Source: Candidatus Vampirococcus lugosii
GTDB taxonomy: Bacteria; Patescibacteriota; Gracilibacteria; Absconditabacterales; Absconditicoccaceae
Assembly: GCF_018420025.1 (NCBI RefSeq)
Contig: NZ_JAEDAM010000026.1
Coordinates: forward strand, 1 to 14,747
DNA: 14,747 bases
Reading direction: 5' to 3'
Both the position numbers and the translations under genes were made by a program. Below are positions 536 through 14,747 of the stretch, piece after piece (the stretch's first letter is position 1; the number at the start of each line of letters is the position of its first letter). Below the pieces are notes generated by a model. It made no database searches. It worked only from the letters and a program-made list of their open reading frames with translations, and was not told the DNA's origin.

Positions 536-2761
536 ATCTACAAAAGTAGAAATATTATACGAATTATAAAGTAATGTTGATGATTGCTGGACTCAGTTAT
601 CTACAAAAGTAGAAATATTATACGAATTATAAAGTTATTAATATATAAAATAGCTATTAAATCTACAAAAGTAGAAATATTATACGAATTATAAAGAATA
701 TTTTTTTGCTTTATTGCTCAAAAAATCTACAAAAGTAGAAATATTATACGAATTATAAAGATGGATGATGTTATTGATTTATTTGAATCTACAAAAGTAG
801 AAATATTATACGAATTATAAAGTATATCACTTACAAAAATGATTCATAAGCTATCTACAAAAGTAGAAATATTATACGAATTATAAAGATGTATTGAATA
901 GAATATTAGAAGAGAGAATCTACAAAAGTAGAAATATTATACGAATTATAAAGTTAACTATTAATATATATGATATGAAAGATCTACAAAAGTAGAAATA
1001 TTATACGAATTATAAAGTCATTATGCAACATTAAGTCAAATACAAGATCTACAAAAGTAGAAATATTATACGAATTATAAAGAATGCTGAATATAATCGT
1101 GGCATAGAATCTACAAAAGTAGAAATATTATACGAATTATAAAGAAACTATTTGGATAAAATGGGGCGAAGACAATCTACAAAAGTAGAAATATTATACG
1201 AATTATAAAGTTATTGAAGCTATATATTACACAAAACAGAATCTACAAAAGTAGAAATATTATACGAATTATAAAGTATCAAGTGTGATTTCTCACCTAG
1301 CTTTGATCTACAAAAGTAGAAATATTATACGAATTATAAAGATATGATTCATCATAAAAATTTTTCTTATCTACAAAAGTAGAAATATTATACGAATTAT
1401 AAAGTTGTGAATTTATGTGAAGCCGAGTTAATATCTACAAAAGTAGAAATATTATACGAATTATAAAGCATAAATACACTATAGAGAATATTATTTATCT
1501 ACAAAAGTAGAAATATTATACGAATTATAAAGACTATATCAGATAGTATTGCAGAGTTAATCTACAAAAGTAGAAATATTATACGAATTATAAAGAAATA
1601 ATTAATGATTTAATCAACTTAAATCTACAAAAGTAGAAATATTATACGAATTATAAAGTAATCAAAAGCATCCTAGTAACAGAAATACATCTACAAAAGT
1701 AGAAATATTATACGAATTATAAAGATTGACTACATTGTTGGGACTTAAATGATCTACAAAAGTAGAAATATTATACGAATTATAAAGCTGTATTAGTTAA
1801 TTCAACATCTCAAACCATCTACAAAAGTAGAAATATTATACGAATTATAAAGCAGATGAACCCGCCCAGATACTGACCCAATATCTACAAAAGTAGAAAT
1901 ATTATACGAATTATAAAGAAGAAAAAATACAAGTTCTTACAGAAGAGCTTATCTACAAAAGTAGAAATATTATACGAATTATAAAGTATAAGGTTGATGA
2001 AAGCGTCGCCAAAATCTACAAAAGTAGAAATATTATACGAATTATAAAGAATACTCCAGATATAAGAAACTATTAATCTACAAAAGTAGAAATATTATAC
2101 GAATTATAAAGATGTATTAACTGTATTAAAACAAGCAAGATCTACAAAAGTAGAAATATTATACGAATTATAAAGTCCTGTCGCATCTTGAAAAGTATAA
2201 AAATCTACAAAAGTAGAAATATTATACGAATTATAAAGCTTGGGACTGACATTTTGCATATTATAATCTACAAAAGTAGAAATATTATACGAATTATAAA
2301 GTTATGTTAATATTGGTGATGAGACAACACATCTACAAAAGTAGAAATATTATACGAATTATAAAGTTTAGGCAATGTTGTTCAATCATTATAGTAATCT
2401 ACAAAAGTAGAAATATTATACGAATTATAAAGATATTATGATACAATATGTGAAATTTATTATTATCTACAAAAGTAGAAATATTATACGAATTATAAAG
2501 TCATAAAATAAGATAAATATGCTTGGTCAATCTACAAAAGTAGAAATATTATACGAATTATAAAGGTAACTCCAACTTTACAAGCTTTATGATATATCTA
2601 CAAAAGTAGAAATATTATACGAATTATAAAGAATTAAATTTAAAATGCCAAACTGGACAAATCTACAAAAGTAGAAATATTATACGAATTATAAAGTTTG
2701 AAAATTTGTTAGTCTTGAAACAATGATCTACAAAAGTAGAAATATTATACGAATTATAAAG
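536..2761 (-). CRISPR. Type V-A (Cas12a-type) CRISPR array with 35 identical 36-bp repeats and 34 unique spacers (26-32 bp)
   Basis: The plus-strand repeat is ATCTACAAAAGTAGAAATATTATACGAATTATAAAG. The minus strand reads CTTTATAATTCGTATAATATTTCTACTTTTGTAGAT, which has the canonical Cas12a 3' handle (TCTAC-TTTT-GTAGA stem-loop plus T). Repeat starts are 536, 599, 661, 725, 787, 853, 918, 982, 1047, 1109, 1175, 1241, 1306, 1369, 1433, 1497, 1560, 1623, 1689, 1752, 1817, 1883, 1951, 2014, 2076, 2140, 2203, 2266, 2331, 2397, 2465, 2530, 2596, 2661 and 2726. The handle orientation and the adjacent cas2 both indicate minus-strand transcription, with the leader on the right (2762 onward). Confidence 0.98.
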
Positions 2762-2785
2762 ACCGATTTTGGCTTGTTTACTAGA

Positions 2786-2825
2786 GTTTCGGGAGCATAC
2801 AGATTTTTATCCGAGCTTCCGAAAC
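2786..2825 (+). other. GC-rich 11-bp stem / 18-nt loop hairpin inside the repeat-proximal leader
   Basis: GTTTCGGGAGC (2786-2796) pairs with GCTTCCGAAAC (2815-2825). As plus-strand RNA this gives 10 Watson-Crick pairs plus one G-U. As minus-strand RNA that position becomes an A-C mismatch. No U-tract follows on either strand. Confidence 0.5.
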
Positions 2826-3013
2826 CCAGTTGGACCGCCAATCCATTTTTATAAAGACTATAGGTTTGCAATTTTTTATATTTTGCATATTATTCCATAT
2901 AATCACACTTTACAATCCACATCGTTATTTCTATCTTTGTTTTTTTCTAATTCGTATTATTATATTTCATATAATATCTTTTAATGATCTTCTTATATAA
3001 TTCGTATTTATTC

Positions 3014-3348: not shown

Positions 3349-4305
3349 TTAAATACTAAAAAAATCTAATTCTTCCAAATCATCTTTTACAAATGCTCTA
3401 TAATAACTTTTACAAAACTTAAAAATTCATTCTTTATTTTCCAATATCGGTTCCAATAATAATTTTACATAATAATTTCTATTTTTCCAAGGAAGCCAGT
3501 ATTCTCCTTTTCCAAATTTAAAATCTTTTTCATTTATTTGATTCAAATTATTCATTTTTACAATTTGTTTATCTACAATACACCTAAAAGGTTCTACTAA
3601 ATCACAAACCAAAGATTTTCTTTGAAAAAACATTTGATGATAAAATCATTTATAAATATCAAATCAATAAAGATTTAAATTTGATTCTATAAAATTATAC
3701 AAAAAAGTATACCCTATATCCATAAGTAAATTTGTAGGATCAACTTTAGTCCTAGGCATTCTTTTGTACCAATTCAAATTTTTAAAATATATTTCAAAAA
3801 ATATTTTGGAAATATTTCATTCATATCATCTCAAAGAATCTTGATTTTCTGTTTTATTAAGATTTTTAATCAAAATTTTAATTTTATTTATTCATTCTTT
3901 TATTTTTTCATCTTTATTTCTAATATTTTTCAATAAAGAAAGTTGATTTTCTGCTTTATTATTTACTATTTTTTGTGAAAGCATAAGTTCTTGATCAAAA
4001 TTATATTGCTTTTGTCTTAACAAAAAATTTCATTCTAATTGATTTCATATCAAAAATTTAGGAGCAAGATTATGATTTAAGAAATAAACACTAATCCCAA
4101 ATTCTAATAATTTATTTATTAATTTAGTAGTAATAGTACAATCTCATATTACAAATAAATAAAAAATTTTGTAACAAGATGCTTGATTTACTAATTTTTC
4201 ATCTTGATAAATTGCGATATTATCATTTTTGAGTTTTAAGTTCTTAAATTCATCACTAGTAATAACAACTATTTGTTTTTCTTCAAAATCTTTATAAGAA
4301 AGCAT
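3349..4305 (-). CDS. cas1: CRISPR-associated integrase Cas1 (318 aa under table 25)
   Basis: MLSYKDFEEKQIVVITSDEF...FVIGDCTITTKLINKLLEFGISVYFLNHNLAPKFLIGN...LRGYEGNISKIFFEIYF...DPTNLLMDIGYTFLYNFIESNLNLYGFDIYKGFYHQMFFQRKSLVCDLVEPFRCIVDKQIV... The Cas1 catalytic blocks are present (GxEGN Glu, FYHQ His, DLVEPFR acidic). The track fragment 3427-3633 is in frame with the ATG at 4305. Several in-frame TGA fall at Gly-typical positions (VIGD, GYEGN, LYGFD). Confidence 0.93.
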
Positions 4306-4330: not shown

Positions 4331-4879
4331 TTATTTGTAATAATCACACAATTCATTGTATATACATTTTTCACATTTTTTAAAATTTTGATTGAATTTA
4401 GAATTCAAATTAAAGTTTTGAAAATCTTTTATTAATTTTTCAAAATCTTGAATTTCTTGTTCTCAAGGAATTTTAATCTCATAATTTTTATTGTCTTGCA
4501 AAGAATGTATTTTTATTTTATTTATTTCATATCACATTTCTATCATACAAAAATATTGAGCATATACTTGCCAGATATAACCTTGATAAATTTTGACAAC
4601 TTTACTTTTTCTTTCTATTAAAGTTTTGTTAACAAAATCAAAAAGGTCTATTTTCCCAGTTAGTAGGTATTTATTTGAAAAAACAGAAATTCATTGTAAT
4701 ATATTTTTGGAAGTGCTATATTTTGCCTTATCTATATTTTCGTGATTGTGTTTACCTAGAGTTTGAGCTTTTTGATGATAATTTTTGGTATTGTATTTGG
4801 CATATAGTTCATGAAAATAAATAGATCTTGGGCAAAAGATAAAGTCGTTAAGTGTAGAAATTTTTATATAGTTTTGCAT
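4331..4879 (-). CDS. cas4: Cas4 RecB-like (PD-D/ExK) nuclease with 4-Cys Fe-S cluster motif (182 aa under table 25)
   Basis: MQNYIKISTLNDFIFCPRSIYFHELY...NILQGISVFSNKYLLTGKIDLFDFVNKTLIERKSKVVKIYQGYIWQVYAQYFCMIEMGYEINKI...KKCEKCIYNELCDYYK*. It has the N-terminal CPR Cys, GKID, IERK (ExK), QVYAQY (QxxxY) and a C-terminal CxxCxxxxxC. The track ORF 4691-4879 is its N-terminal piece, cut at a TGA. Confidence 0.9.
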
Positions 4880-4891
4880 TTTTATTTTTGG

Positions 4892-7800
4892 TTATGAATT
4901 AATTTGTTTTTTAATATATTCCATTCATTTTTTAGCTATATTGTAAGTAGCAAGATCATCTCAAGAGTTGATGAAATCAAATCAATGTCTTTTATTTTTC
5001 ATATGATAATTACAAGTATTATTTTCTGTTTTTTTCGCTTTTTTTAAGTTATTTCAATAATCAATTCAATTATTTTCTTTGTAATGATGCATTGAATTTT
5101 CAAATTTTGGTCATTTTCAATGTCAAAATAATTTTTCATTACAAACAGGACAAGCACTTGAAGTATTATATTTATTTATATATCAAATAATTCATAATTG
5201 ATCTAATTTTTTATCACTTTGAAAAGAAAAAACTTGTTTATAATTTGGAGGGACTTTTCATAGTGAAGAAAATTTTTGTAATAATTTTTCTTCTATTCTA
5301 CTTCATAAAGTTGTATTATTTTTTTCAAAATCATTTTGTTTTTTGGATAATTCAAAATCTTCAAAAAATATCATTCAAGGATATAATTCTTGCAAATATA
5401 TTATTATTCAAACCATATTAGCACAAATTGCATTTCTTAAATTATTTATTTTTAAAATAGAAATATTATTTTCATTTTCATCAAATTTATTTTTATTTAA
5501 ATATTCTTGTAATTCTTCTATAATCTCTTCCTTTGAACAAATAACATTTTCTTTATAATAATATAAAAATTCTTTTTTTTCTATACAATTTATAGTTATA
5601 TTATAATCATCATCCAAAATTTTATAATCTTTAATTTTTTTGGCATATACTAGATCATAAATTTTTCTTTTTGCTGAAGCTATTTTTAAATTTAAATATG
5701 TTGATAAATCTCAATTTAAATAGATTCTTCCATTTATAAATTTTGCTTTAGTTAAATCTATACATGAAACTTCTTTTTCATCATAAAAATCTGGATGTGT
5801 ATCAAAAGTATAATATGATAAATTTTTATAAATTGGAGTTCATTTTTCATTTGTAGCTTTTAATCATTTTTCATTTAGTTCATAAACTTTAATTTTTACT
5901 CATTTATTATTTTCTTTTGAAAAATCAAAAATTCATAAACTTACAAGTTCATTTTCTCATCTATCAAGTCAATAAAAATATTTAAAAGAATTTTCTTTAT
6001 TAAAATCTTTGTTATATTTATTATAAAAATTTAAAATTTCATCTGTTTCTTTAAAATTTAAATCAATTGATTTATTAAAAGAATTTTGTGTAATACTTGT
6101 TGTTAAAATATATCTATCATATAATTTTCTATTAAATTTCAATCAAGAATATTTTTTTTCAAAATTTTTGTCTTTTTCTATAAAACTAATTTTTATTTCT
6201 GGATTTATACGAATAGGAAATTTTTCTTTTTCATTATCTTCAGTCCAAAAATTCCACCATACTTTAGTATAATTATTTGGTTTTTCTCTTTTGAATTCTT
6301 TTTTTGTTTCTAATTTCTTTATTTCTTCTTCATCATATTTTTTTAAATCATAATTGGTAATTTTATAAAGTTTTGCTTCAAAATTTTCTATAATTTCTTG
6401 TTTTGTTTTATCTGATATAATAATTTTTTCTCTTTTATAACAAACTTTTTTTAATTCTTCTTCAAATTTTTCTAAATTTTCAAAATCTTTTTTTATAAAA
6501 TCATCAAATCAATCAAAATATTTTATAGAAATTTGTTTTTTTGTTGATTCAAGATTTAATACAGTTTTATAAAAATCTATAAGCAATTTTTCATCATTTT
6601 CTCAATTTTGTTTTTTGAATTCAAATTTATCTTTTAATTTTCATTTATTAAAAAAAATTTTATATTTATATTTACATATATTTTTATTTAAATTTTTTCT
6701 AAATGAATCGTCTACTTCTTTTCTAAATGAATTATATAAATCTTTTCTAAATGAATTATCTACTTCTTTTAATTTTCAATGTATATTTTCAACTTCTTTT
6801 CAAAAACAAAGTTTATCCAAAGCTCTTAAAGTAAATGATTCAAATTTATATAAAATCCATTCTCAATTATTTTCATTTTGTAAATTATCTATAAAATATT
6901 TTGATTGATTTAAATTTGTTTTGTATTTAGAAATCTCTTTTTTTGTATCTCTTGGAATAGTAAGTAAATATTTATTATTTTTATTTTCAAGAATTAAAGC
7001 CCAACTATTTGTTTTTTCAGCTTCAATTTTTTCTTTTTCAATTGATTTTATAAGTGCTTTTATTTTACCATATTCCGTTGCAATTTTTTTGTATTCATTA
7101 CAAAAGTTTTTAAATTTATAAAATTTAAATTTTCATTTTCTATTTCATTCAAAAAAATATTGTCATCTTTCTTTTTTTAATTCTGTTATTTTTTCAAAAA
7201 AATTTTCTTTTTCTATTTCTCAAAATTTTTCTCAAAATTCATTATTATATTTTTCTAAATTATATTTTATTTCTTCATTTTTTTGCTCTTTATTTTTTGC
7301 TTTTTTAATATTTAAAATATCTGATTTTGCTGTTGATAAAATTAAAATAGCCTTTGTTAAATCTAAAATATTTTTATATTGATCTTTATCAAAAATATCA
7401 TTATATAATGAAATATTTAAATCAATATTTTCTCATTTTGCTTTTGCTTCTAAATATTTTAAAAAATTTGATTTTTGTTCTGTTTTATATTCTTTCATTA
7501 ATTCATATGCTCTTTTTATTTCTAAATCTCAAATATCACTTGTAATATATTTACAAAATCAAGAATTTTTTATATTATATATATTAAATATGTTTTTTAT
7601 TTTTCTCTCTTTTTTATTAAAATAAGTAAATTCATTTAATTTTTTATTATTTTCTTTTTCTTTTTCTAATATATTTTTGTCATAATTTTTGGGTTTTTTG
7701 TTTACGGTAAAATAATTAAAACTTGCTTTTTCAATTACTTGTCATGAATTTTTTGGCAAAAGATGTTTTTCAATATTTATAATTAATTTTTCTGTTTTTT

Positions 7801-8368
7801 TAATTTTTTCTTTTATATCATTAATTTTTTTTGATATTTCTGCTTCTTCTATATTTATATTATTAAATAATTCTTTTAAAAAATTAAAATTTGTTATTTT
7901 TGAAATTTGATAAAAAAAATAATTCAAATCTGAATTTCTGGCTTTATCTTCTTGATTTCTAAATCATAAATTTTTAATTTTTCCTAAAAAAAAATTATTA
8001 TCATTTTCAAAACTTTTAAATCTATCTAATAGATAATCTAATTTTTTACTTTCTCAAATTTCAATTTGATTATTTCATTTTTTAAGAAATATAATATTTT
8101 TATCATAAAATTCTCTTTTTGTATAATTTTTTAAAAAACTAAATTTTATTTTTAATTTTTTATTTAATTTTTCTTTATTAAAATTAAAAACTATTTCTGG
8201 AAAAATTGAAAGTATTTTTTCATAAATTTCAACAAATTTTTTTAAATTTTCATCTAAATTTCATTCATATTTTGGTTTAATTAATTCTTCATCAAAATAA
8301 GGCTTTAACTCAAACCTAACTGTTTTATTTACCTCATACAAATTTTGTAAATTTTTTATATTTGTCAT
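4892..8368 (-). CDS. cas12a2: Second type V effector: a divergent Cas12a-derived nuclease of 1158 aa with a Cas12a2-like architecture
   Basis: It is continuous under table 25 (3477 nt), and track fragments 7742-7927 and 5408-5617 are in frame. The N-terminus MTNIKNLQNLYEVNKTVRFELKP parallels the Cas12a NLYxxSKTLRFELKP. Other Cas12a-like blocks are SWALILENKNNKYLLTIPRD, LYKITNYDL and NRKLYDRYILTTSIT. RuvC-I is YFYGLDRGENELV (D802), RuvC-II is GMIFFEDFE (E1003) and RuvC-III is SGDDLATYNIAKKG (D1137). The RuvC-I to RuvC-II distance is 201 aa, against 85 aa in the adjacent Cas12a. The RuvC-II to RuvC-III distance is 134 aa, against 239 aa. That shorter region holds only ACPVCNEKLFGHGKG...NTCNYHMKN (CxxC...CxxH). 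The family call (Cas12) is strong; the Cas12a2 assignment rests on architecture only. Confidence 0.8.
6695..6766 (-). repeat. In-frame 3 x 24-nt tandem repeat inside the second effector gene
   Basis: The plus-strand units are TTTTCTAAATGAATCGTCTACTTC, TTTTCTAAATGAATTATATAAATC and TTTTCTAAATGAATTATCTACTTC (6695-6718, 6719-6742, 6743-6766). They encode EVDNSFRK-DLYNSFRK-EVDDSFRK (residues ~535-558). Confidence 0.9.
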
Positions 8369-8393: not shown

Positions 8394-11300
8394 TTAATCT
8401 TGTACAAACTTATCCCAATCATCATCAGAAATATATAAATCAGGTTTTTCAATATTATCATCAATATTATTCAAAATCATAATTCATTTCCTAGCAATAT
8501 TATATGCCCCATTTGCATCAGCATTAAAATTTTTTCACTGTAATCAATCTTGACTATGATAATCACAAGATGGACATATAATATAATCTATATCATTTTT
8601 GCTATCTGAATTTCTCAACTGCAAAAGCAAATTGAAATAAAAAGTCAAAGATTTATAAAATTTTGCATCTTTATCAAATATTTGTTTATTTATATTTCCA
8701 TACAAATCTATATTTTCATTTTTGAATAAATTATTTAATCAATCATTAATATTAATTTCTTCAACTTCCATTTTTTTTGTATTAAATTTTAATCTATTAT
8801 TTAAACTATTGATATTAAATTTAGTTTTATTTGTATTTTGCTTTTTCTTTTTGTCTTGTATAATTTGGTAATCAAAAATAAATTTATTTCAATCAAAACT
8901 AATATCTACATTTTCAAAAAATTTTTTTTGTTTTTCTTTTGTAGCAGAATTTGAAATATAAACATTTTTTCTAAATCAACAAACTGGACAAGTAGTAGAA
9001 GTATAATTTGCTCTAGTATAAAACATTATTCAAGATTGTTTATATTTTGCTATATCTTGATAATCGTTAACTTTTGGCACTAATTGCCAAGCTTTAAGAT
9101 AAGAACCAATTTCATCAAGTTTTTTATTTTTATCAGTTAGATAATTTAATTTTTTTGCCAAAGCTAATTCTAGTTTTTGATAAACTTGTTTTTCAATTTT
9201 TTGTCTTCATCTTTTGAATCACATATTTAAATCTTCAAAAACAATAATAGCATTATATTTTATAATTAAATCAGCTAATTTATTTACTACTTGAGAAATA
9301 TATCAATTTTTCAATTCTTTAATATTTTCTATTTCTCACCAAGATATTCTTGCATCTTTTCTTGATTTTTCTATAGTTTCCAATTTTTGTAAATAATTAA
9401 TTTTATTTACTATATTCAAAGTATCTACTTCATAGATCTTTCAATTTCTATCAATTACAGAATAATATGCCAAATGTTTTTCTCATCTATCTATTCAAAT
9501 AATTTTAATATCTTTATTTTTATATAGATATTCATTTATCATTTGATTAAAATAATATTTATCTCATTTATTTGCATTTAATGTAATAGAAATATGAAAA
9601 AGTATTTTATCTTGAGAATATCTTTTATGTTGTATTATCTCTTTTCAAGATTTATCAAGTTTTTTATTTAAATCATCAGTTTTATCTCTGAAAAAAACTT
9701 CTGCTCATCAACTTAATTTTATTACCAAATTTTCCAAATTTTGAGGATCAAACAAAAGTTTGAAATATTTGGTATGAATATTTTCTTTACTTCAAGATTT
9801 TTTAAATTTTGAAAAATCTTTATTATATATTTGAAAAAGATATAGTTCTCAAGATTGTATTTTAAAATCAATAAAACTTGAATCAATTTTTGAGAAATTA
9901 AGAGAATACATTTTTTCTTCAATATCTTGATAAAATGTAGCTAAATCATTATAATCTTTTGATTCAATACTAGATAAATCATATTTATCAGAGTAAAGAA
10001 ACAATAATCATTTTTTGTAATAATTAATAAGTTTTTTTAATTTTGTAGGGTCAAACTTTTCTCATTGTTCTTTACTTGCTTGAAATATATCAAATTCTTT
10101 TTTAATATCAGCAATTTCTTGATTATATCAAAAATTTTCAATATATTTTGATAAATATTTATTTAGTTCATTTCAAGTAAGAGAATTTAATTTTTTTTGT
10201 AATGGAAAAAGTAATCTTGGTAATTGTCTATAAACATTATTCAGTTGTTTATAATTCATTTTTTCATAAAAATCTCATCAAGTATATTCATAATTTTTAA
10301 ATAAATTATTATTTTTCAAAATTCATAAATAATAATTTCAATCTTTTTTTAGAATTACTCAAAGTCTTTCTTTTTCTTTATCTTTATCCCAACCAGTAAG
10401 AAATTGAGAATTATCAAAATTTAATTTAAATTTATCAGTTTTTATTTTCTTTTTGGTCAAATAATTTCTTATCAAATTGTAATCTTTCCATATTTCATAA
10501 TCTGTATAATAATCATTTAATTCATTATAAAAATTATTATCAGTTTCTTTATCTTCTACTTTTTTTCTATTTTTTTCTAATACAAAATATTTCATCATAC
10601 TATAAACTGACAAAACTGAATCAAAATAATTTTTGATAATTAATATATTATCTTTATTTTTTTCAAAATTTGAAAGAATAGTATTTAAAGATTGTTCATA
10701 TTTAATTAATTCATCAATATTTTTATTTAGTTCATAGTTAAATATATTTAGAAAATTTTCATAAATAGTTTTATTTTCAAAAATTATATTTTTATTTATA
10801 TAAATATGTTTAAATACATCTTCAAGTTTTTGGTATGGAATATTTTCAAGAATATTTTTTAGTTCTGCAAAATTTACAAAATCAGCAATTTCTCATTTAC
10901 CAAAAAATCATCTAATATAATCCCATCCAGAAAAATATTTACTTGAAATTGTATTAATTGCTTGTTTAGTAATATATATTTTATCTAATTCATATTTTTT
11001 ATTTTCTACAACAAAAGAATTTATCAAATTTTTAGCTTGATTAACTTTTTGTTTATTTTTTGAGATACTAATTTTTATACTTTCTATAAGTTCATTATCA
11101 TCTTGTATATCTTCTATAAAATTTTGTTTTAAATTTTCCGAAAGAATTTGTTTATAAAGTAATTTAAATTTTGGGAATTTTATATCTTTTTTATTAGATT
11201 GAATTTGTTTTTGTTTAAATAGATTTATTTTTTCATTTATTCATTGTATTTTTTCTCAATTGTCTAATGAATAACCTCATAAGACTTTATTATAATTATC

Positions 11301-12020
11301 AATTCAATCTTGCAAAAGACAATTATTATAAAAATCTAATTCAAAAATAGCTTTTTCATCTTGTGATAATTTATTTTTTATAAAATCTGGAAAATTATTT
11401 TTAAAATTTTGGAAATCTTGAATATTTTTAATAAAAGTGATTAAATTTTCATCAATAGCTCTCGTGGCAACTGCTCCTGCTTTGCCATCTTCAGCATAAA
11501 AATTTTTTCTAGATTCATTAAAATTTGCAAAATAAGTAAAAAATCTATCAAATTTAGCAAATAAATCTTTTTGTTCTGGATAAAATTCTCACATAAGTTT
11601 TAAAATTTCTTTTTCATTCAAAACTGAAATTCATCATTTTTTAAGAAAAGAATATTTCTGTTTCCACTTATTTCATTGAGATTCAAAAAACTTTACAAGT
11701 TCTTTTCTTAAATTTTTGGATATTTTTTCAAATTCTTTTTGTAATTTTTTATTTTTTTTATTTTCTGGAGATTTATTTAATTCAATGTAAGAATTATAAA
11801 AATCTTCTAGTTGATTTAGATAAATATTTTGTAAAGCTTGTTTTACAAATTTACGATGTAGATCATCAAAATAATCTTTTATTTTTGTATAATTTACTTG
11901 TACTTGTCTATCTTTTTGGATAATTCAATCTTTTTTTAGATTATCTAATGTATTTGAAATAGGTTTTAGTTCAAATCTCAAAGTTTTTGATATTTCATAA
12001 AGATTAGTAAAATTTTCCAT
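8394..12020 (-). CDS. cas12a: Cas12a (Cpf1) type V-A effector nuclease, 1208 aa under table 25
   Basis: MENFTNLYEISKTLRFELKPISNTLDNLKKDGIIQKD...FANFNESRKNFYAEDGKAGAVATRAIDENL...NNCLLQDGIDNYNKVLGGYS...FLTGWDKDKEKERLGVILKKDGNYYLGIL...[35 protein letters not shown]...LSGGAEVFFRDK...HKRYSQDKILFHISITLNANK...[23 protein letters not shown] (RuvC-I D844)...[57 protein letters not shown] (RuvC-II E929)...QSGIMFYTRANYTSTTCPVCGF...YIICPSCDYHS...NFNADANGAYNIARKGIMIL (RuvC-III D1168). By my hand count about 40 in-frame TGA codons are present, and they repeatedly fall on invariant Gly positions. Track fragment 10359-10613 is in frame. Confidence 0.95.
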
Positions 12021-12083
12021 ATTTATTATTTAAAAAATTAAAATATTATATGTAAGAAATAGTAGAGTTGTTTACAGTTTTTT

Positions 12084-12344
12084 TTATTTTCAGTGATAAA
12101 ACTCATCTATAATTTCATATGGTGTTTTATTATCAATTCATTTATGAAGTTTGACACAATTATATCGATTTACAAACCTTTTTAAAGACTTTTTTCTATT
12201 TTCTCTTGAAATAAATGTTTCTTTACTATGTCGCATATCCATTAATGTTCTTATTACTCTTTCAGCTTTACCGTTTGTTTGTGGTCTTTTTACTTTTGTG
12301 TATTTTTTCTTTGTTCATGCTTCAAGACAATATTTCAATTGATG
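12084..12344 (-). pseudogene. C-terminal fragment of an rve (DDE integrase-core, IS481/IS3-like) transposase
   Basis: The minus-strand frame reads ...HQLKYCLEAGTKKKYTKVKRPQTNGKAERVIRTLMDMRHSKETFISRENRKKSLKRFVNRYNCVKLHKGIDNKTPYEIIDEFYHGK*, with stop TAA at 12084-12086. RPQTNGKxER...YNxxxxHxGIxxKTPxE is the characteristic end of the rve integrase core. The N-terminal catalytic part is absent, and the fragment abuts the oppositely oriented IS4-type fragment at ~12332-12344. Confidence 0.75.
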
Positions 12345-12921
12345 ATAATAATTTATATAAAGCAATAGATTATCTTGAAGATAATCAAAATGATATAGAA
12401 AATAAATTATTCAAAAAAAGAAAAGATGCTAATTGTAAATTATATTTATATGATATTACGAGTACATATTTTGAATAAAAAGCTGTTGAAATGGCAAAAT
12501 ATTGATATAGTAGAGATAAAAGAAATGATAGATTGCAAGTAAATATATGATTAGTAACAGATACTAATTGATATCCTATAAGTATAGAAATATTGGAATG
12601 AAATATAAATGATAAATCTACACTACAATCAAAAGTAAATGAATTAAAAGAGTTAAATGACATATTTTTATGTGTTTTATTAGTTATTATTTACTTCAAG
12701 ATTTTAGATTAAAAGTTAAAGATTTATTACAAGAATATATATTATTAACTGAATTAAAAAATGTAAGTAAAGTTTACTTTAAAATAGATAATATACATAT
12801 AAATAAAGTAGAACAAATAAATGAGCTTCAAGAAAAAATATTTAAATTATTTAAAATAAAAATAGATTTGTGTAGTACACAAATCTATTTTTATTTTCTT
12901 CCAAATCCTTGTCTAAATTAA
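12332..12921 (+). pseudogene. IS4/IS1634-family (DDE_Tnp_1-type) transposase pseudogene with N-terminal truncation, an in-frame TAA and an internal deletion
   Basis: Frame 1 reads ISIDDNNLYKAIDYLEDNQNDIENKLFKKRKDANCKLYLYDITSTYFE*KAVEMAKYGYSRDKRNDRLQVNIGLVTDTNGYPISIEILEGNINDKSTLQSKVNELKEL. This matches the LYDxTSTYFEG...GYSRDxRxDxxQ...G.P...E...GN..D block around the first catalytic Asp. At ~12660 the frame changes to (M)CFISYYLLQDFRLKVKDLLQEYILLTELKNVSKVYFKIDNIHINKVEQINELQEKIFKLFKI, the family C-terminal tail. The segments that should carry the second Asp and the Glu are missing. Confidence 0.75.
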
Positions 12922-13418: not shown

Positions 13419-13898
13419 ATGAAAAAAATATTATTATTATTTTTACTTTTAAGTTGTATTCCAATTTCTTTAACTAGTGCTAATAATACTTTATTTGAAG
13501 ATAAACCTACTAATGGTGGTGATATTGATTGTAATGAAGATTATGAGCCTGTATGTTGATATGATTCAAAAACTTATAGAAATGAGTGTAAAGCAAAAAA
13601 TGAATGAGTTAAAGTTTATTATAAATGAGAATGCTTATCTGTAAAAATGGAGAGTAAGATACAAGAATATGTTTTTGGTAAATTAGATCGAATGTTTAGT
13701 CGTCTTGTTTGAACTGATGAAGAAAAAATTATGCGTGTTTGAAATATAATAGATAATTTTGAAAATAGATTAGAAAAATTAGATGTTTCATCTAGAAGGT
13801 ATAGTATGATTTGATATATTTTAAGATCTTTAAATGATTATATAGATAAAATTTTAGAAGAAGATTTAAATATAGATTGATATTATTTGGATGAGTAA
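13419..13898 (+). CDS. Secreted (possibly lipoprotein) Kazal-like domain protein with a helical C-terminal region, 159 aa under table 25
   Basis: MKKILLLFLLLSCIPISLTSANNTLFEDKPTNGGDIDCNEDYEPVCGYDSKTYRNECKAKNEGVKVYYKGECLSVKMESKIQEYVFGKLDRMFSRLVGTDEEKIMRVGNIIDNFENRLEKLDVSSRRYSMIGYILRSLNDYIDKILEEDLNIDGYYLDE*. It has a hydrophobic signal peptide with an LLSC lipobox-like site. The bacterial Kazal-like pattern C-x8-PVCG-xD-x-TY-xNxC-xA-xxxGV-x-V-xxx-G-x-C is present, and all three pattern glycines are encoded by TGA. Confidence 0.75.
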
Positions 13899-14052: not shown

Positions 14053-14133
14053 TTCAAATCTCAAAGTTTTTGATATTTCATAAAGATTAGTAAAATTTTC
14101 CGTATTTTTTAATAAAAAATTAAAATATTATAT
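14053..14133 (-). pseudogene. Duplicated remnant of the cas12a promoter-proximal region plus its first 17 codons (start codon mutated)
   Basis: Positions 14053-14133 align with 11970-12051. The match is exact over the 51 nt encoding MENFTNLYEISKTLRFE except that ATG becomes ACG (plus strand ccat to ccgt at 14100-14103). The ~30 nt upstream carry a few substitutions and one indel. Confidence 0.9.
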
Positions 14134-14568: not shown

Positions 14569-14747
14569 TAACCTCATCTTTGTAGAACAAAATTTCTAAA
14601 TCCTTGATTTAGACAAGGATTTGGAAGAAAATAAAAATAGATTTGTGTACTACACAAATTTTATAATTTTATTTTAAATAATTTAAATATTTTTTCTTGA
14701 AGCTCATTTATTTGTTCTACTTTATTTATATGTATATTATCTATTTT
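14569..14747 (-). mobile_element. IS4/IS1634-type element copy B (right end, inverted relative to copy A); continues beyond the window
   Basis: This is the reverse complement of 12781-12956. Diverged similarity extends inward to ~14478, so the true IS terminus probably lies between ~14478 and 14569. Confidence 0.85.
14661..14747 (-). CDS. IS4/IS1634-family transposase, C-terminal 28 codons (the gene continues off the right edge)
   Basis: The minus frame reads KIDNIHINKVEQINELQEKIFKLFKIKL* with TAA at 14661-14663. It is identical to the copy A tail, but here a proper stop is retained. This copy may therefore be intact. Confidence 0.7.
   Translation of the reverse strand, partial: KIDNIHINKVEQINELQEKIFKLFKIKL

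Follow-up and report, generated by a model that had tools for sequence, protein, structure and literature searches.

The window analysed here is a 14,747-nucleotide (nt) stretch of contig NZ_JAEDAM010000026.1 (assembly GCF_018420025.1) from Candidatus Vampirococcus lugosii, an epibiotic predator of the Absconditabacteria (SR1) within the Candidate Phyla Radiation (CPR). Its minus strand carries a CRISPR–Cas locus in the order cas12a, a gene for a second effector, cas4, cas1, cas2, a leader of ~300 nt and a CRISPR array (Table 1). The second effector gene, Vamp_48_93, lies directly between cas12a and cas4 in the same operon, and its product is identical (100%) to a Candidatus Vampirococcus lugosii entry at NCBI that is annotated as a 'hypothetical protein'. 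This protein (1158 amino acids (aa), encoded between Cpf1 and Cas1) had already been flagged as a candidate new type V effector by Moreira et al. (2021; PMC8080830). A first-pass annotation, made from the DNA letters, described its C-terminal half as re-engineered relative to Cas12a, the bridge helix having given way to a large insertion and the Nuc domain to a small zinc ribbon, and took these to be the changes reported for Cas12a2, with a new V-A-derived variant as the alternative. Sequence comparison and a predicted fold indicate that the second effector is a type V effector of the Cas12a3 clade, not a Cas12a2.

Read with the standard code (table 11), the window contains almost no open reading frames (ORFs) and none that is long; once TGA is allowed to encode an amino acid, several long ORFs line up along its minus strand. 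The four cas genes contain 93 in-frame TGA codons versus 19 GGN codons, and the glycine of the Cas12a IDRGE motif is itself encoded by TGA. Because of these counts and this motif position, a reading with genetic code 25 (TGA = Gly) is supported; code 4 (TGA = Trp) was dropped on the same two grounds. In code 25 the second effector is a single unbroken ORF of 1158 codons (8368..4895, with the TAA stop at 4892–4894), containing 41 in-frame TGA codons, 20 of which fall in residues 802–1158.

The RuvC domain of the second effector is split, and its catalytic triad is intact. D802, E1003 and D1137 align with D712, E1032 and D1137 of Ba1Cas12a3, a catalytic triad that was defined experimentally (PMC12851939), and the D/E/D triad is kept in 131 of 140 relatives. 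The distances between these residues are 201 aa (D802 to E1003) and 134 aa (E1003 to D1137), compared with 85 aa (D844 to E929) and 239 aa (E929 to D1168) in the neighbouring Cas12a. Both pairs of spacings had been given in the first-pass annotation and are reproduced exactly by alignment; the segment that it had singled out, 4892–5965, runs exactly from the D802 codon through the stop codon. It had also proposed ~115 extra residues without a Cas12a counterpart, and a 40-sequence alignment places ~116 residues more than in Cas12a between RuvC-I and RuvC-II, where the second effector has an insertion domain of ~150 aa. The Cas12a bridge-helix motif (SRKDARISW...) has no counterpart there and aligns to a predicted loop. 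Pfam recognizes no domain in the second effector apart from a spurious, sub-threshold 'Protein_K', and finds NUC and RuvC_1 in the neighbouring Cas12a. Thus, neither a retained bridge helix nor a full Nuc domain is present. An AlphaFold2 model of the C-terminal 369 residues reached a predicted local distance difference test (pLDDT) of 81 and a predicted template modelling score (pTM) of 0.85. A frameshift or mistranslation as the source of the apparent insertion is excluded, because the ORF is unbroken, homologs align throughout the region and AlphaFold2 returns a confident fold.

The Cas12a2 papers (PMC9811890, PMC9849127) set Cas12a2 apart from Cas12a by two features: the bridge helix is replaced by an insertion, and Nuc by a zinc ribbon. 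In January 2026, Cas12a3 and Cas12a4 were described as sister clades that retain the RuvC motifs and the zinc ribbon (PMC12851939). In our alignment, the distance from the first Asp to the Glu is 186–320 aa in Cas12a2, Cas12a3 and Cas12a4, as against 85–98 aa in Cas12a, and the distance from the Glu to the second Asp is short in all three. The insertion and the ribbon therefore cannot identify Cas12a2, because they are common to Cas12a2, Cas12a3 and Cas12a4. Within the family, the 201 aa of the second effector is near the shortest (minimum 194, median 232).

The clade was assigned with 22 labelled reference proteins from Supplementary Data 1 of PMC12851939, all of which agree in length with the published table. 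A phmmer search with the second effector matched every Cas12a3 in this set, from MG60_9Cas12a3 (2e-150) to Ba2Cas12a3 (6e-32), and at E ≤ 10 matched no Cas12a2 (the SR1 one included), no Cas12a4 and no Cas12a. MG60_9 is the closest named reference, with 494 bits; Rb2 of Roizmanbacteria scores 320 bits and Sm2 of Smithella 274 bits. In a neighbour-joining tree built on 977 trimmed columns, the second effector falls within Cas12a3 with 100/100 bootstrap support, and the sub-branch that it shares with MG60_9Cas12a3 and 15 metagenomic proteins is likewise supported at 100/100; Cas12a2 forms a separate clade, also at 100/100, and Cas12a4 stands well apart. A sequence search of the PDB returned two Cas12a3 proteins as its sole matches (9.5e-71 and 2e-55), and SuCas12a2 was absent.

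Structure prediction points the same way. The full-length AlphaFold2 model (pLDDT 78.6, pTM 0.66) matches Cas12a3 binary complexes with template modelling (TM) scores of 0.69–0.70 (E ~1e-47), Cas12a2 with ~0.44 and Cas12a with ~0.3. For the C-terminal half, the TMq values are 0.67–0.71 for Cas12a3, 0.55 for Cas12a2 and ≤0.35 for Cas12a. The structure comparison that had been suggested as a check thus ranks Cas12a3 above Cas12a2 above Cas12a. The best match among solved structures, by structure and by sequence, is Ba1Cas12a3/BaCas12a3 (PDB 9hlx, 9hm4, 21we, 21wj), which shares the aligned triad and the type of CRISPR RNA (crRNA) handle with the second effector at only ~22–24% identity. A profile search (alignment A1) of a set of 5.8 billion proteins found nothing beyond the first 19 proteins, and the structure models therefore rest on shallow alignments.

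These comparisons bear directly on the Cas12a2 assignment, under which the protein would be an RNA-triggered shredder of double-stranded DNA (dsDNA), single-stranded DNA and RNA. The two architectural changes that prompted it are real and are as published, the tandem with cas12a beside a shared array recalls some Cas12a2 systems, and Cas12a2 structures are the second-best fold match (SuCas12a2, PDB 8d49/8d4a/8d4b; TM ~0.44–0.55). However, the changes are not specific to Cas12a2, and sequence, tree and fold all place the protein in Cas12a3: no Cas12a2 is matched by phmmer at E ≤ 10, SuCas12a2 is missing from the PDB sequence matches, and the Cas12a2 clade is separate at 100/100. In SuCas12a2, an aromatic clamp formed by Y465/Y1080 and Y1069/F1092 is required for dsDNA degradation (PMC9811890, PMC9849127), an activity that Cas12a3 enzymes do not have (PMC12851939). 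Two of the three clamp positions that could be aligned are lost in the second effector: Y1069 is replaced by Lys, and the ~20-aa loop that carries Y1080 is specific to Cas12a2 and missing here, whereas F1092 is matched by Phe. Furthermore, only three of the four zinc-ribbon cysteines that are essential in SuCas12a2 are found. Taken together, these observations make a Cas12a2 identity very improbable. The alternative that had been offered, a new V-A-derived variant, was right in spirit; the variant received the name Cas12a3 in 2026.

Membership of Cas12a4 has in its favour that several Cas12a4 proteins come from SR1/Gracilibacteria, that the C-terminal motif of the second effector, HGFDFINSGDDLATYNIAKKG, resembles that of ApCas12a4, and that the Asp-to-Glu spacings are similar. 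It is nevertheless scarcely credible, as all four Cas12a4 references (ApCas12a4, ca40, ca48 and ca70) went unmatched by phmmer at E ≤ 10 and the tree places the second effector in the Cas12a3 clade at 100/100, far from Cas12a4.

Table 1 Features of the locus, in window coordinates
Feature	Coordinates	Strand	Basis or remark
Second effector gene (Vamp_48_93), 1158 aa, code 25, Cas12a3 clade	4892..8368 (including TAA stop)	−	ORF, genetic code, NCBI identity, clade, fold
RuvC-I strands, residues 796–816; D802 codon 5963–5965	5921..5983	−	
Insertion domain, residues ~817–970, at the Cas12a bridge-helix position	5459..5920	−	
Segment equivalent to the tRNA-loading domain, residues 905–973	5450..5656	−	Three-strand beta sheet and one helix predicted
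RuvC-II region, residues 971–1060; E1003 codon 5360–5362	5189..5458	−	
Zinc-ribbon region replacing Nuc, residues ~1066–1130 (~65 aa); C1073xxC1076 5141–5152, C1119xxH1122 5003–5014; further conserved His 1083, 1094, 1095	4979..5173	−	
RuvC-III, residues 1131–1158; D1137 codon 4958–4960	4895..4978	−	
Canonical cas12a, 1208 aa; REC1, REC2, PI, RuvC and NUC domains	8394..12020	−	Comparator in the first-pass annotation
cas4, 182 aa, V-A 'PREFRAN' subtype	4331..4879	−	
cas1, 318 aa, V-A 'PREFRAN' subtype	3349..4305	−	
cas2, 92 aa	3059..3337	−	
Sole CRISPR array of the window: 35 identical 36-nt repeats (CTTTATAATTCGTATAATATTTCTACTTTTGTAGAT, minus strand), 34 spacers of 26–32 nt	536..2761	−	

The neighbouring Cas12a has the RuvC D-E-D core, an N-terminal 'NLYE..KT.RFELKP' motif and the repeat in common with the second effector, and the PADLOC 2023 'Cas12a' profiles match the second effector end to end (3.5e-176). 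The bridge helix of Cas12a and its ~140-aa Nuc domain (Pfam NUC) are both lacking in the second effector, where a putative zinc ribbon takes the place of Nuc. The first knuckle of this ribbon, C1073-P-V-C1076, is invariant. In the second (CNYH, 1119–1122), C1119 is the sole Cys and H1122 comes after it; neither the second effector nor its 11 closest relatives have an equivalent of the third canonical Cys. In SuCas12a2, mutation of the four essential cysteines (C1170, C1173, C1188 and C1191) abolishes activity (PMC9811890, PMC9849127), and the BaCas12a3 zinc ribbon is of the CXXC/CXXXC type (PMC13594972), unlike that of the second effector. Conservation within the sub-branch suggests where replacement ligands may lie: H1083, H1095 and C1119 are each present in 12 of 12 members, H1122 is present in 11 of 12 (Tyr in the remaining one), and 11 of 12 carry His or Cys at position 1094. 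The conserved H1083, H1094 and H1095 may substitute for the lost Cys. The CxxC...CxxH metal site proposed by the first-pass annotation is plausible and its residues are confirmed, but it is one candidate among others, as H1094 or H1095 might just as well be the fourth ligand.

The loss of one canonical Cys might also be read as decay, in which case the second effector would be a paralog without catalytic activity, perhaps a regulator that binds crRNA; alternatively, it might result from a frameshift or from mistranslation. An internal region of 8-aa tandem repeats with low model confidence would fit such a history, as would two finds upstream of the operon, namely transposase fragments and a duplicated, scar-like cas12a 5′ end. 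Yet code 25 gives an intact ORF of 1158 codons, the D-E-D triad is both complete and conserved, the fold is predicted with confidence, and conservation of the replacement zinc-ribbon His over 12 relatives indicates selection. Decay is improbable on this evidence. The repeat region itself (window 6695–6766, residues ~535–561, in the REC/PI region) consists of three tandem 24-nt repeats that encode NSFRKDLY, NSFRKEVD and DSFRKNLN.

In Ba1Cas12a3, the tRNA-loading domain (tRLD) comprises insertion-domain residues 855–960 and uses R902, Y922 and N924 to clamp the CCA tail at the tRNA 3′ end (PMC12851939), and its deletion abolishes tRNA cleavage in both enzymes that have been studied (PMC12851939, PMC13594972). 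The segment that separates the conserved 'AKRKIY' helix from the 'INxLR' helix is 69–70 aa long in the second effector and 152–153 aa long in Ba1Cas12a3. The second effector lacks ~80 aa of the tRLD: Y922 and N924 fall in an insertion found only in Ba1, and R902 aligns to an Asp. HMMER alignments to the two solved Cas12a3 proteins skip target residues 885–966 and 900–978. The remaining segment is predicted to form a three-strand beta sheet and one helix. An early multiple alignment had assigned ~25 residues to the tRLD; local alignment replaced this with a shared core of ~70 aa, to which Ba1 adds two extra insertions. The REC2 T-arm loop residues are also not conserved in the second effector. 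For the 114 full-length representatives of the family that retain the triad, the segment is short (63–119 aa) in 108 and long in 6, and the tRLD is reported for only ~35% of Cas12a3 homologs (Li et al., PMC13594972). By segment length, the second effector belongs to the short-insertion (tRLD-less) majority of Cas12a3.

The closest comparison is with other tRLD-less Cas12a3 proteins: RoiCas12a3/Rb2Cas12a3 (Candidatus Roizmanbacteria) and MG60_9Cas12a3 belong to the same clade as the second effector (100/100), are of CPR origin, have the same order of RuvC-I, insertion, RuvC-II, zinc ribbon and RuvC-III, and have a tRLD-equivalent segment of 69–91 aa. They differ in that the second knuckle retains both Cys in MG60_9 and Rb2 but has one Cys and a His in the second effector; the second effector also stands out by having nearly the shortest Asp-to-Glu spacing in the family and by its position directly between cas12a and cas4.

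Removal of tRNA 3′ tails is established for Ba1, Ba, Sm3 and ca23 (PMC12851939, PMC13594972). RoiCas12a3, which is tRLD-less, cleaves target RNA efficiently and is a strong general collateral RNase with a different tRNA pattern (PMC13594972). A tRNA-tail-specific enzyme like Ba1 or Sm3 would respond to recognition of target RNA by removing the 3′ CCA tails of tRNAs. The second effector is in the same clade as Ba1Cas12a3 and Sm3Cas12a3, and the latter trims tRNA 3′ tails (PMC12851939) with a segment of 74 aa, as short as that of the second effector; the missing Ba1-type tRLD therefore does not exclude tail specificity. Several features make this activity doubtful all the same. The CCA-positioning tRLD is gone, with no equivalents of R902, Y922 and N924, and both enzymes that have been studied lose tRNA cleavage when it is deleted; the residues of the REC2 T-arm loop are not conserved; RoiCas12a3, tRLD-less and from a CPR organism, behaves as a general RNase; and the Rb2 score exceeds that of Sm2. 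Because the CCA contacts and REC2 T-arm residues are absent and Rb2 scores above Sm2, general collateral RNA cleavage like that of RoiCas12a3 is favoured: by analogy, we consider the odds of it about even, somewhat more likely than tRNA-tail trimming, with the remainder falling to some other activity or to inactivity.

We put at roughly 80% the probability that the C-terminal half of the second effector is the NUC lobe of a Cas12a3-clade effector, in a compact form without a tRLD. Four points weigh against this reading or against what would follow from it. The structure model was built from only 16–18 homologs, several with Trp mistranslated for Gly. The ribbon deviates from the four-Cys site that is essential in SuCas12a2, so that metal binding and activity are only putative here. 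The short-segment enzymes disagree, Sm3 trimming tRNA tails and Roi not, and a missing tRLD cannot tell the substrate. Finally, the characterised homologs from which a mechanism can be drawn by analogy lie outside the Gracilibacteria/Absconditabacteria sub-branch.

The second effector is accompanied by a V-A-type array and by the genes cas1, cas2 and cas4. The 3′ end of the array repeat, ...AAUAUUUCUACUUUUGUAGAU, is a Cas12a-type 5′ handle and differs by one loop nucleotide from the 'Cas12a/2/3/4' crRNA scaffold of Dmytrenko et al.; by its sequence, the repeat of this single array is predicted to be compatible with both effectors. A cooperative model has been proposed for Cas12a/Cas12a2 tandems with a shared array (PMC9811890, PMC9849127), and the arrangement of Cas12a and the second effector beside one array would fit such a model by analogy.

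Characterised Cas12a3 enzymes respond to RNA targets that are flanked by a purine-rich protospacer-flanking sequence. Once activated, they cut RNA and leave DNA uncut, cause growth arrest without an SOS response and defend against phage (PMC12851939). If the second effector acts in the same way, it would bind crRNAs from the array that it shares with Cas12a and would recognize complementary RNA, rather than DNA, flanked by a protospacer-flanking sequence. Recognition of the target RNA would open the RuvC site, and the opened site would cut non-target RNA, leading to growth arrest (abortive infection). Such RNA cleavage would complement DNA cutting by Cas12a.

The sub-branch to which the second effector belongs (proteins P0001–P0012) combines the most compact insertion domain of the family with a His-rich ribbon (CxxC, H1083, H/C1094, H1095, C1119xxH1122). 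In BaCas12a3, the zinc ribbon and the tRLD jointly gate the substrate groove. Because these two elements gate the groove there and the sub-branch ribbon is remodelled, a distinct substrate preference is possible. It is conceivable, although we regard it as unlikely, that the sub-branch is a functionally distinct Cas12a3 subtype with a collateral preference of its own, unlike that of Ba1 (tRNA CCA tails) or Roi (general RNA), working alongside Cas12a on one array.

Cas12a3 loci are often associated with Cas12a systems (Li et al., PMC13594972). In a Candidatus Altimarinota genome, a homolog of 51% identity (P0004) shares a locus with Cas12a, cas4, cas1 and cas2 in another gene order. For a further homolog (P0012, at 9001–12630 of its contig, L003), no cas1, cas2, cas4, cas12a or Cas12a-type repeat was found within 9 kb on either side, and it appears to be an orphan effector. 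The pairing is therefore recurrent but not obligatory, because the first homolog is paired and the other stands alone. The orphan gene adjoins an integrase and a ClpB-like ATPase. In the Altimarinota locus (L001, 12744–14934), the Cas12a3 homolog is separated from cas12a by a DNA methylase and a 354-aa protein for which Pfam has no match. In alignment A1, proteins P0002, P0003 and P0005–P0012 have Trp at conserved Gly positions of the second effector (YWLDRWENE, SWDDLATYNIAKKW); these relatives are code-25 genes that were translated with code 4 in public protein sets.

Several further observations concern the DNA that flanks the operon. Between cas2 and the first repeat, window positions 2770–2860 (minus strand) include ~85 nt that are GC-rich against a contig of ~20% GC and that fold as a long hairpin (−31.6 kcal/mol, z = −3.7, with 0 of 200 shuffles as stable). 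It has no Rfam or tRNA match, and Rfam and tRNA scans of the window as a whole found nothing; the hairpin may be a leader element or a small RNA. At 14053–14125 (minus strand), 2.1 kb upstream of the real gene, there is a ~75-nt copy (92% identity) of 11970–12042, which covers the cas12a upstream region and first 17 codons. In this copy ATG has become ACG and the frame decays past 'TENFTNLYEISKTLRFE', which gives it the look of a rearrangement scar. Short transposase-like ORF fragments on both strands, namely an rve-type integrase C terminus ('...KPQTNGKAERVIRTLMD...') and an IS4/IS1634-like piece, occupy positions 12084–12712, which separate the start of cas12a from this duplicate; they suggest that the region upstream of the operon has seen insertion of an insertion sequence (IS) or decay. 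Two copies of a 32-nt sequence (97% identity) lie at 12853–12884 and 14628–14659, with the palindrome ATTTGTGTA(G/C)TACACAAAT; the sequence could be a terminator or the boundary of a repeat element. Finally, 13419–13898 (plus strand) encodes a protein of 159 aa in which a signal peptide is combined with a Kazal-like cysteine pattern (CNEDYEPVCGYDSKTYRNECKAKNEGVKVYYKGEC), and Kazal-domain genes are also found near homologous effector genes in two loci of relatives (L001 and L002).

The second effector is absent from the ortholog table of Dmytrenko et al. (PMC12851939), and our literature search found no paper that ties Vampirococcus to Cas12a2 or Cas12a3 by name; a search for Metagenomi's account of the MG60 effectors as 'V-A prime' yielded nothing of use. 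The relatives named in PMC8080830 are now called Cas12a3, and the second effector is a new, unlisted member of this known family. This assignment fixes the annotation of a 'hypothetical protein' from the Vampirococcus genome paper. It also has consequences for how such proteins are recognized, as a bridge-helix insertion and a zinc ribbon do not separate Cas12a2 from Cas12a3 or Cas12a4, and translation with code 4 will degrade the quality of profiles and structure predictions for proteins of Gracilibacteria and Absconditabacteria. The two tested tRLD-less Cas12a3 enzymes disagree in their collateral substrate, and the compact size, missing tRLD and altered ribbon of the second effector make it a natural comparison for what decides that substrate. 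For the organism, the assignment means that a CPR predator carries a two-effector locus in which a DNA-targeting Cas12a and, by homology, an RNA-sensing Cas12a3 would stand beside the only array of the contig.

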